Shown: positions 15,055 to 29,413 of the stretch, piece by piece
Layout: each line of letters starts with the position of its first letter
Position numbering within the stretch: the first letter of the stretch is position 1
Source: Promethearchaeia archaeon
GTDB lineage: Archaea; Asgardarchaeota; Lokiarchaeia; Sigyniarchaeales; SOKP01
DNA length: 32,000 nucleotides
Direction of reading: 5' to 3'
Assembly (NCBI GenBank): GCA_046497275.1
Contig: JAWOFX010000148.1
Coordinates: 1-32,000, forward strand
The notes under the pieces: generated by a model
Databases searched by the model: none
The model's input: the letters and a program-made list of their open reading frames with translations, nothing else
What the model was told of the DNA's origin: nothing
Made by a program: the position numbers and the translations under genes

Positions 15055-15456
15055 ATGAAAGAAGTAAAGATAGTTTCGTTAGATGATCGCGGGAGAATAG
15101 TGATCCCACAAATTATTCGAGAGAGTTTAGGTTTAACCACAGACTCTCAAGTTATGATGGTTGCGGACAGTGAGACGAAAGAAATAAAGATTACACCAGT
15201 TGGATTAGATGAAGACAGAAAACCAATAAAATTACGAATTACTATGGAAGATGCTCCTGGAGCTTTAGCCAAGATTGCGATAGCTTTTGGAAAATTAGGA
15301 ATTTCTTTGATGTATGGTGAATCTGTTGTTATAGAAAAGGATAAAAAGGCGATCTGGACCGTTATTAGTCCCACACCCAATATACCATTAGAAGAGCTGG
15401 AAAAAAAGCTTAAAGTTGAAGGTGATGCTCTCAATGTGGAGTTTGTACCTCTTTAG
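15055..15456 (+). CDS. AbrB/SpoVT-type DNA-binding domain fused to an ACT domain
   Basis: SLDDRGRIVIPQIIRESLGL is the AbrB swapped-hairpin signature; ITMEDAPGALAKIAIAFGKLGISL is the ACT signature. ATG 15055 preferred over TTG 15043. Confidence 0.85.
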   Translation: MKEVKIVSLDDRGRIVIPQIIRESLGLTTDSQVMMVADSETKEIKITPVGLDEDRKPIKLRITMEDAPGALAKIAIAFGKLGISLMYGESVVIEKDKKAIWTVISPTPNIPLEELEKKLKVEGDALNVEFVPL

Positions 15457-15625: not shown

Positions 15626-16243
15626 ATGGCAAAAAAGAAATCTAAGCAAGACAAAGAAGAAGAAACATTAGATAACGCTTTAAAATCAGCAAAAAAAACA
15701 GAAAATGATCTCCAGAATTTAATTGAAGTCCTACAAATGGGGAAAGGATTTTATAAAAAGAAAGAAAAACAACCAGAAGAAGAAGTAGTTGTGATTCAAC
15801 CACAATTATCTCATGAAAAGAAAGAAGAAAAAAAGCCATCTTCAGTTAAAGAAGAACCAAGTTTTATTAAGGAAAAAGGAGGTAAAATTAAAGGAGAGGA
15901 TATTTATTTAAAATTAGGAGAGTTCTTTGAGAACCTATTTGAGAGTTATAATGAAAGATATAATGAGTGGGAAAATTCCATTTCTGCTTTATTGTCAATT
16001 TTACGAAAAATGAGAAAAATAACAAAGAAAAACACAGAATCATTAACACATGAAATCAATAATGCATATGAAAAGATTTTAAAAAATTTAGACCAATTTA
16101 AATTAAAACGAGATGAGATCGAAAAAATTGCCGAAGTTGATGTCCAAGGGATGTCTCGGGAATTTAAAAAAGTTTTAGGCTTATTAGAACTCCAGATCAA
16201 AGAGTATCAATTAAAAAGAATCACAGATGAGATGTTTCATTAA
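15626..16243 (+). CDS. Hypothetical charged coiled-coil protein
   Basis: 205-aa ORF with a Lys/Glu-rich low-complexity N-half and amphipathic helices in the C-half; 54 nt upstream of the actin-like gene. Confidence 0.75.
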   Translation: MAKKKSKQDKEEETLDNALKSAKKTENDLQNLIEVLQMGKGFYKKKEKQPEEEVVVIQPQLSHEKKEEKKPSSVKEEPSFIKEKGGKIKGEDIYLKLGEFFENLFESYNERYNEWENSISALLSILRKMRKITKKNTESLTHEINNAYEKILKNLDQFKLKRDEIEKIAEVDVQGMSREFKKVLGLLELQIKEYQLKRITDEMFH

Positions 16244-28468: not shown

Positions 28469-28784
28469 ATCTAAGCAAACTTATTTATCTTTACCAAATG
28501 ATTCAGATCTAAAGGAAAAAGATTATTTAATACTAGATCTAAAATTATTTAATAACGAATAAGAATATTTGATTTTGTCTATAACTAACTTAATTTTATC
28601 CCAAAAGGTTAAAACAGAAATTATTATCCATGATATCTAGCTCATACCATAAAGTTTTTTGGAATACATATTTTTATATTCATTAACTTTTATAGTCTTA
28701 ATATAAAAAAGTTAAATTAACTAAAATCATGATTCGCAAATTTTGAAAGAAAAATGACTATTCAAAACAAATATATAAATGGAA

Positions 28785-28790
28785 GAGGTG
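28785..28790 (+). promoter_or_regulatory. Shine-Dalgarno in front of the GTPase ATT codon
   Basis: GAGGTG (complementary to the archaeal 16S 3' end) 8 nt before ATT 28799. Confidence 0.6.
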
Positions 28791-28798
28791 GTGAATAG

Positions 28799-29413
28799 AT
28801 TCCTTCACGTCGTGGTGATGGCACTCTGGTCTTCAAAGTATGCTTTTACGGACCATCCTTAGGAGGGAAGACCACTGCATTGGACTGGGTCTATCGGAAG
28901 GAGGGACTCGCTTCAGGAGATATGCAGCAAATTCAGGATCCTACTGGCCGAACACTTTTTTTTGATAGAGTTGTTGCTAAAGTATCAAATGTAGTTTTTC
29001 AAGTATATACTGTTGCGGGTCAGCGAAGACATAAATTTCAGAGACAAACTGTATTAAAAGGAACAGATTCAATTATTTTTGTCTGGGACAGCTTAATTGA
29101 TCAATGGGAAGAAAATATATGGTCCCTTAAAGAATTATTAAAATTTTACGGTAATAAATTACTTCCAAAAGGACCTGGAGAGCCTCCAGAAGTACCGATG
29201 GTTGTTTTGGCAAACAAGAGAGATTTAGAGGATATTGTGGATGTATCTAAAGTTCGACAAGTATTAGATACAGCTAAGCTAGGTGAAACATTGATTTATG
29301 AGACTATTGCGATAACTGGAGTAAATGTAAAGCGAGGTTTCGTGTATGCTGCAAGACAAGCAGTTTTAAACCATTATAAGAAATTATCCGGTCAAACGAT
29401 GGAAAAGACATAA
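28799..29413 (+). CDS. MglA-like small GTPase (204 aa; probable non-canonical ATT start)
   Basis: In-frame upstream extension IPSRRGDGTLVFKVCFYGPSLGGKTT supplies G1. G2 GRTLFFD, G3 YTVAGQ and G4 NKRD match the MglA family. Confidence 0.88.
   Translation: MPSRRGDGTLVFKVCFYGPSLGGKTTALDWVYRKEGLASGDMQQIQDPTGRTLFFDRVVAKVSNVVFQVYTVAGQRRHKFQRQTVLKGTDSIIFVWDSLIDQWEENIWSLKELLKFYGNKLLPKGPGEPPEVPMVVLANKRDLEDIVDVSKVRQVLDTAKLGETLIYETIAITGVNVKRGFVYAARQAVLNHYKKLSGQTMEKT

Follow-up and report, generated by a model that had tools for sequence, protein, structure and literature searches.

A Shine-Dalgarno-led AUU codon as the probable start of an MglA-type small GTPase gene in a Promethearchaeial genome

Here we describe an MglA-type small GTPase gene of an uncultured Asgard archaeon that is very probably translated from an AUU codon at position 28799, a reading to which we assign a probability of about 85% on comparative sequence evidence. 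The AUU would be led by a Shine-Dalgarno (SD) sequence and would yield a protein of 204 residues beginning with M-PSRRGDG. The gene lies in the window, by which we mean the whole stretch of 32,000 nucleotides that was analysed; its source contig (C180) has 34,524 nt and belongs to a 3.85-Mb genome of 30% GC. The titles of related records (Promethearchaeota or Promethearchaeia, formerly Lokiarchaeota) identify the organism as a Loki-type Asgard metagenome-assembled genome (MAG). Within the window, the GTPase gene is accompanied by genes for an M29 peptidase, a zinc-ribbon membrane protein and a metallophosphoesterase. A preliminary description of the locus had listed an upstream open reading frame (uORF), its TAG, the ATT, a GAGGTG motif, the P-loop and an overlapping frame from ATG 28779, and all of these coordinates proved correct. 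The features are as follows.

28799..29413, plus strand: MglA-type small GTPase gene, 204 codons followed by TAA (29411-29413)
28799..28801, plus strand: predicted ATT start codon, directly after TAG 28796-28798, at the orthologous start column and also present in the metagenomic copy L182
28754..28798, plus strand: in-frame 14-codon uORF encoding MTIQNKYINGRGGE and a stop, from ATG 28754 to TAG 28796-28798
28785..28790, plus strand: predicted SD sequence GAGGTG, 8 nt 5' of the ATT, pairing with the 16S rRNA tail
28850..28873, plus strand: P-loop GPSLGGKT, in invariant columns of the orthologue alignment A1
28826..28828, plus strand: CTG, start of the 195-aa product in the public annotation, rejected as the true start
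28880..28882, plus strand: TTG, first canonical start, rejected as it lies downstream of the P-loop
28779..28862, plus strand: out-of-frame 27-codon ORF from ATG 28779, without evidence of function
28698..28711, plus strand: TATA-like A/T box, putative promoter, in a block conserved in the same-genus genome G002 and in L182

Pfam profiles gave weak Arf and Ras matches to the encoded protein. The nearest solved structures are the MglA proteins 5ymx, 6h17 and 3t12, at E-values of about 1e-22 (9e-23 for a match of some 185 residues); the similarity to MglA of Myxococcus xanthus and Thermus thermophilus is thus distant, though significant. Alignment to 5ymx_A revealed the motifs of the MglA family, all in columns invariant in A1: the P-loop GxxxxGKT, a TxxGQ G3 motif in which Thr replaces Asp, a switch I Arg (RTLFFD) and NKxD (NKRD). 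The P-loop, RTLFFD, NKRD and the N-terminal size are shared with the two bacterial proteins, and the Thr-for-Asp replacement occurs in both, as TVAGQ in the present GTPase against TVPGQ in MglA. In the structure match, residue 12 of the GTPase is paired with residue 13 of MglA, so that a start at the ATT gives the usual MglA N-terminal length. The label "MglA-like" in the preliminary description is borne out by these structure matches and motifs. No MglB/Roadblock gene adjoins the GTPase gene within the window.

Between the TAG at 28796-28798 and the P-loop, the GTPase frame contains no ATG, GTG or TTG codon. The preliminary description had proposed a comparison of orthologous 5' ends, which we compiled from 40 related genomes and a species-representative collection to give 94 distinct 5' ends. 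At the column aligned to ATT 28799, these have ATG in 40 cases (including 3 placed one codon earlier), TTG in 36 (38%), GTG in 5, ATT in 8, ATA in 3, CTG in 1 and ACG in 1. That is, 81 of the 94 carry ATG, TTG or GTG at this column or one codon before it, and 13 (14%) carry a near-cognate codon; the protein after the column reads PSRR(G/A/S)D in all 94. ATG in every close orthologue, together with lack of expression of this copy, had been named beforehand as an outcome that would speak against an AUU start, and ATT is found both in L182 and in the 8 column entries. The genome G002, whose GTPase is 96% identical, has ATG at the column and no uORF. Compared with G002, codons 2-27 show 19 synonymous differences and 1 non-synonymous difference (pS 0.92, pN 0.017), and codons 28-204 show a pS of 0.87 and a pN of 0.015. 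Against L182, the 27 codons 5' of TTG 28880 carry 6 synonymous differences and no non-synonymous one. Judged from these substitution patterns, the N-terminal codons 2-27 are under purifying selection, and to the same degree as codons 28-204. Since pS and pN match those of the remaining gene, the stretch 5' of TTG 28880 is most likely translated, and with it the nine residues before CTG 28826. TTG 28880 was rejected as a start on the conservation and dN/dS of codons 2-27, together with the P-loop lying upstream of it.

The 16S rRNA of this genome ends at its 3' side with GGATCACCTCCT, and because GAGGTG is complementary to this tail we take it as the true SD sequence. Its aligned spacing to the ATT is 7, and the ATG and TTG starts of the genome peak at 4-7. 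In the proposed mechanism, GAGGUG (28785-28790) would pair with the 16S rRNA 3' end and thereby position the small ribosomal subunit; the initiator Met-tRNA would subsequently read the near-cognate AUU 28799, giving a 204-residue product with the predicted N-terminal peptide (M)PSRRGDGTLVFK. Insertion of Met at the AUU is presumed here, and the output would presumably be lower than from an ATG. The reading ranked first in the preliminary description, an SD-driven AUU start producing M-PSRRGDG, agrees with the orthologue column, the selection pattern, the SD sequence and L182. Expression damping special to the GTPase, as suggested alongside, is not demonstrated, because ATT starts are routine in the genome, as described below.

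Public record P0010 on the same contig is 195 residues long and begins with MVFKV, corresponding to CTG 28826, with the P-loop retained. The preliminary description had expected automated annotation to start at TTG 28880 and to give a P-loop-less protein, and was mistaken on both points. The annotated CTG is preceded by GGTGA, 7 nt upstream and inside the coding sequence as we delimit it, but it is very improbable as the true start. A1 shows no variation at residues P2, S3, R4, R5, D7 and L10, and codons 2-9, upstream of the CTG, differ from those of G002 synonymously only. The DNA itself is not conserved, with G002 having TTA for the CTG and GGAGA for the GGTGA. Moreover, two further assemblies list the 204-aa M-PSRRGDG form (P0002 and P0003). 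A frameshift from ATG 28779 was also considered and rejected, as the orthologues start simply at the ATT column. The ORF from ATG 28779 has no SD sequence of its own and is absent from orthologues with simple leaders; its ATG also occurs in L182.

The copy L182 was obtained by a metagenome search with a coding-only pattern, which returned one JGI contig, Ga0102944_1015532; a search with a pattern including the leader gave no match. Between its gene and that of the window there are 54 synonymous differences and 2 non-synonymous ones (pS 0.39, pN 0.004). L182 keeps the TAG-ATT junction and a 14-codon uORF (encoding MTIQNKFMNDRGDE before its stop), and its SD sequence is GAGGTGA. With one MAG assembly behind the window, and ATG in the nearest species, G002, the ATT might be a miscalled base, or an ATG recently inactivated by mutation in a nascent pseudogene; we regard this as extremely unlikely. 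A base-call error is excluded because the independent and diverged L182 carries the same junction, uORF and SD sequence. As to inactivation, L182 still reads ATT at a distance of 54 synonymous differences, with pN/pS of about 0.01 between the two copies; the SD sequence has been strengthened in the new leader, and more than 20 other ATT starts occur in the genome.

Upstream of the gene, a promoter-like A/T-rich block (about 28640-28720) is nearly identical in the window, G002 (L009) and L182. Past 28720, however, the leader has been remodelled; it measures 78 nt in the window but 24 nt in G002, and the uORF, the strong SD sequence and the ATT all lie within the extra part. Relative to G002, this lineage therefore has a leader some 54 nt longer, with a much stronger SD sequence and with ATT in place of ATG. 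The leader matches no Rfam family. Its origin as a repeated or mobile piece was rejected, the genome matches being of low complexity only.

The immediate contact of the two frames raises the question of coupling. If AUU initiation depended on the uORF, ribosomes would translate from ATG 28754 to the TAG ending at 28798 and reinitiate at the AUU, with the SD sequence holding the subunit, and the output of the GTPase would be coupled to translation of the uORF. The TAG abuts ATT 28799 with 0 nt between, and the diverged L182 retains a uORF of equal length together with the TAG-ATT junction. In other genera, in-frame uORFs end 0-1 codon before the start; orthologues with an in-frame uORF are L014 (start CTG), L173 (ACG), L020, L146 and L172 (GTG), and L015, L016 and L017 (ATG). 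A published study reports that termination-reinitiation in archaea requires overlaps or very short distances (PMC10666635); as in the present gene, the downstream start follows the stop of the upstream frame immediately. In that account, however, the upstream frame is a genuine operon gene, whereas the present uORF has 14 codons, encodes a peptide that is not conserved, and is missing in most orthologues. Specifically, the uORF is absent from 7 of the 8 ATT-start and all 3 ATA-start orthologues, and 4 of its 14 residues differ in L182 (4 non-synonymous differences against 1 synonymous). The uORF ATG has no SD sequence, and the leader shows no significant fold (z-score 0.54) that a ribosome on the uORF could open. 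Across the genome, an in-frame uORF accompanies 1 of 22 SD-led ATT genes, that one probably being this GTPase gene. An in-frame stop directly 5' of an SD-led start is found in 27% of ATT genes, but the A/T-rich spacer makes it frequent in ATG genes as well (11%). Dependence of the AUU on the uORF is hence unlikely in our judgement. Some coupling by termination-reinitiation, the second option of the preliminary description, may occur, and direct initiation at the SD-led AUU would explain the sequence without it.

The preliminary description had offered, as its third option, readthrough of the UAG, and had suggested a search for pylS and pylT. With pyrrolysine, or through a suppressor, UAG 28796 would be decoded, and translation from ATG 28754 would yield 219 residues. 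The uORF is in frame, and it is present also in L182. Nevertheless, the best genome match to the PylS model scored 31.6 bits against a cut-off of 178, and no tRNA with a CUA anticodon was found by aragorn, which is insensitive here, with just 19 tRNAs detected in a genome rich in introns. Of 1555 long open frames, 213 (14%) end in TAG, and the use of TAG as an ordinary stop at 15454 and 17465, pointed out earlier, was confirmed. In addition, G002 and most orthologues have no open upstream extension, and comparison with L182 shows the extension to change as non-coding DNA does. Readthrough was therefore rejected for want of PylS, the frequency of TAG stops and the missing extension in most orthologues; we give it next to no credence.

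Analysis of the whole genome revealed that the SD-led AUU of the GTPase gene has many counterparts. Long open frames were scanned for codons in the stretch 5' of the first ATG, GTG or TTG that are preceded by an SD 5-mer. Of 865 ATT codons, 25 follow such a 5-mer, whereas the rate for other codons is 1.1% (binomial p 2e-5); of 38 ACG codons, 5 follow one. The SD-led ATT codons peak at an aligned spacing of 6 (15 cases, about 17-fold above background), which coincides with the TTG peak. In several genes, the Pfam match already starts, at profile positions 1-3, before the first canonical start codon is reached; these are thiolase, nucleoside hydrolase, FolE2 and an HTH protein with ATT and RadA with ATA. 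An SDR gene with ATT, matched from profile position 12 and with its first canonical start 132 codons in, is consistent but less decisive, as is ATP synthase D with ACG, in which merely 3 residues are at stake. Four of these starts, each with a Pfam domain 5' of the canonical starts and with GGTGA or GGAGGT 5-8 nt upstream, are located as follows.

C20:10126: thiolase, predicted ATT start
C130, 4465, minus strand: nucleoside hydrolase, predicted ATT start
C13, 21897, minus strand: RadA, predicted ATA start
C139:11172: ATP synthase D, predicted ACG start

Archaeal initiation factors include aIF1, aIF1A and aIF2. Up to its CxxC zinc knuckle, the aIF1 (SUI1) frame of this genome lacks ATG, GTG and TTG, and it is headed by an ATT (C118:66911-66913, position 1423 of L181) 9 nt past GTGA. 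We also compared the genome (G000) with 411 kb of G002 in 222 open-frame pairs, a noisy set containing conserved leaders and antisense frames. Several further genes have a non-canonical codon in G000 opposite an ATG in G002; a CCG-domain gene (ATT) and ATP synthase D (ACG) are examples. Of 91 ATT codons in the 411 kb of G002, a small sample, 1 is SD-led. On these sequence grounds, ATT starts are routine in the genome, with about 20 or more SD-led cases, and the GTPase locus is real and not exceptional. AUU initiation would accordingly be a regular feature of the genome and no peculiarity of the GTPase gene.

The start column itself would appear to turn over often across Promethearchaeia, with weak codons always paired with a strong SD sequence. 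On a quick and poorly resolved tree, the near-cognate state requires 8 changes, at least 3 of which are forced by well-supported branches. The median SD duplex energy is -9.7 kcal/mol at near-cognate starts, -6.8 at ATG and -7.3 at TTG or GTG; the difference between near-cognate starts and ATG has a Mann-Whitney p of 1e-6, calculated on rows that are phylogenetically related and not independent. In the syntenic neighbours from the same genomes (the phosphoesterase, an actin-like gene and two others), every aligned start is canonical, in a small sample. The GTPase gene seems either to accept weak starts unusually well or to be under selection for them, and this would fit a low-abundance regulator.

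Several of the sequences examined show features of a different kind. The GTPase orthologues of at least six relatives, L020, L024, L025, L026, L027 and L028, and also L023, contain inserts of 28-32 nt (one of 45 nt) at differing coding positions. The inserts hold stops or frame shifts and fold as bulge-flanked hairpins, making them candidate bulge-helix-bulge mini-introns; the window copy (28799-29413) has no such insert. Similarly, an RNase HII-like gene of G000, on the minus strand of C102 (about 15936-16175), is split, with MKDFLICGIDEAG in one frame and ..KGPVLGPLVVCGV in another. Its halves are separated by a hairpin insert of about 30 nt, probably a mini-intron, and the same break occurs in G002. 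A further orthologue, L147 (DATKTW010000028.1), is a typical Promethearchaeial GTPase copy filed under a Nanopelagicaceae (Actinomycetota) MAG, probably by a binning error.

In bacteria, infC and pcnB of Escherichia coli are initiated at AUU; the codon is known from very few genes there, with IF3-dependent autoregulation. The present gene resembles them in having a near-cognate AUU behind an SD sequence and a conserved protein that is unobtainable from any canonical start. In contrast, AUU would here open about 20 or more unrelated archaeal genes. Autoregulation of the infC type does not apply, as the product is an MglA-type GTPase, which is no initiation factor and which nothing links to start-codon fidelity. 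A review of archaeal translation names AUG, GUG and UUG only as start codons, leaving AUU unmentioned, and states that SD sites are not prevalent in a Loki-type genome (Schmitt et al. 2020, PMC7531240). The present gene agrees with that account in its leadered, SD-containing mRNA, and the genome in its scarcity of SD sites (about 6.5% of first ATGs are preceded by a strong one), whereas the AUU start goes beyond the codons of the review. A full-text literature search on AUU start codons in Asgard archaea found nothing relevant.

These results bear on the annotation of this genome. Gene callers mis-start the GTPase, the public record dropping nine N-terminal residues, and callers restricted to ATG, GTG and TTG would lose the P-loop too. 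The same fault would affect about 20 or more other genes here, including RadA, ATP synthase subunit D and thiolase. A broader idea, which we put forward tentatively and consider rather doubtful at present, is that start-codon stringency has been relaxed across this Promethearchaeial lineage. In that case, AUU, AUA, ACG and CUG would be ordinary starts that are compensated by strong SD sequences and tune expression, preferably in regulators such as the GTPase, with the abutting uORF adding reinitiation control at this locus; the aIF1 gene itself would then be among those opened by AUU.

In summary, comparison of orthologues combined with a genome-wide scan points to an SD-led AUU as the start of an MglA-type GTPase gene. 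Taken alone, the gene would be one added example that opens no new question. Routine use of AUU in the lineage, on the other hand, would interest students of the evolution of start-site selection, for whom the start column of this GTPase amounts to a natural experiment, with seven codons across 94 Asgard orthologues and the weak codons accompanied by a stronger ribosome-binding site.
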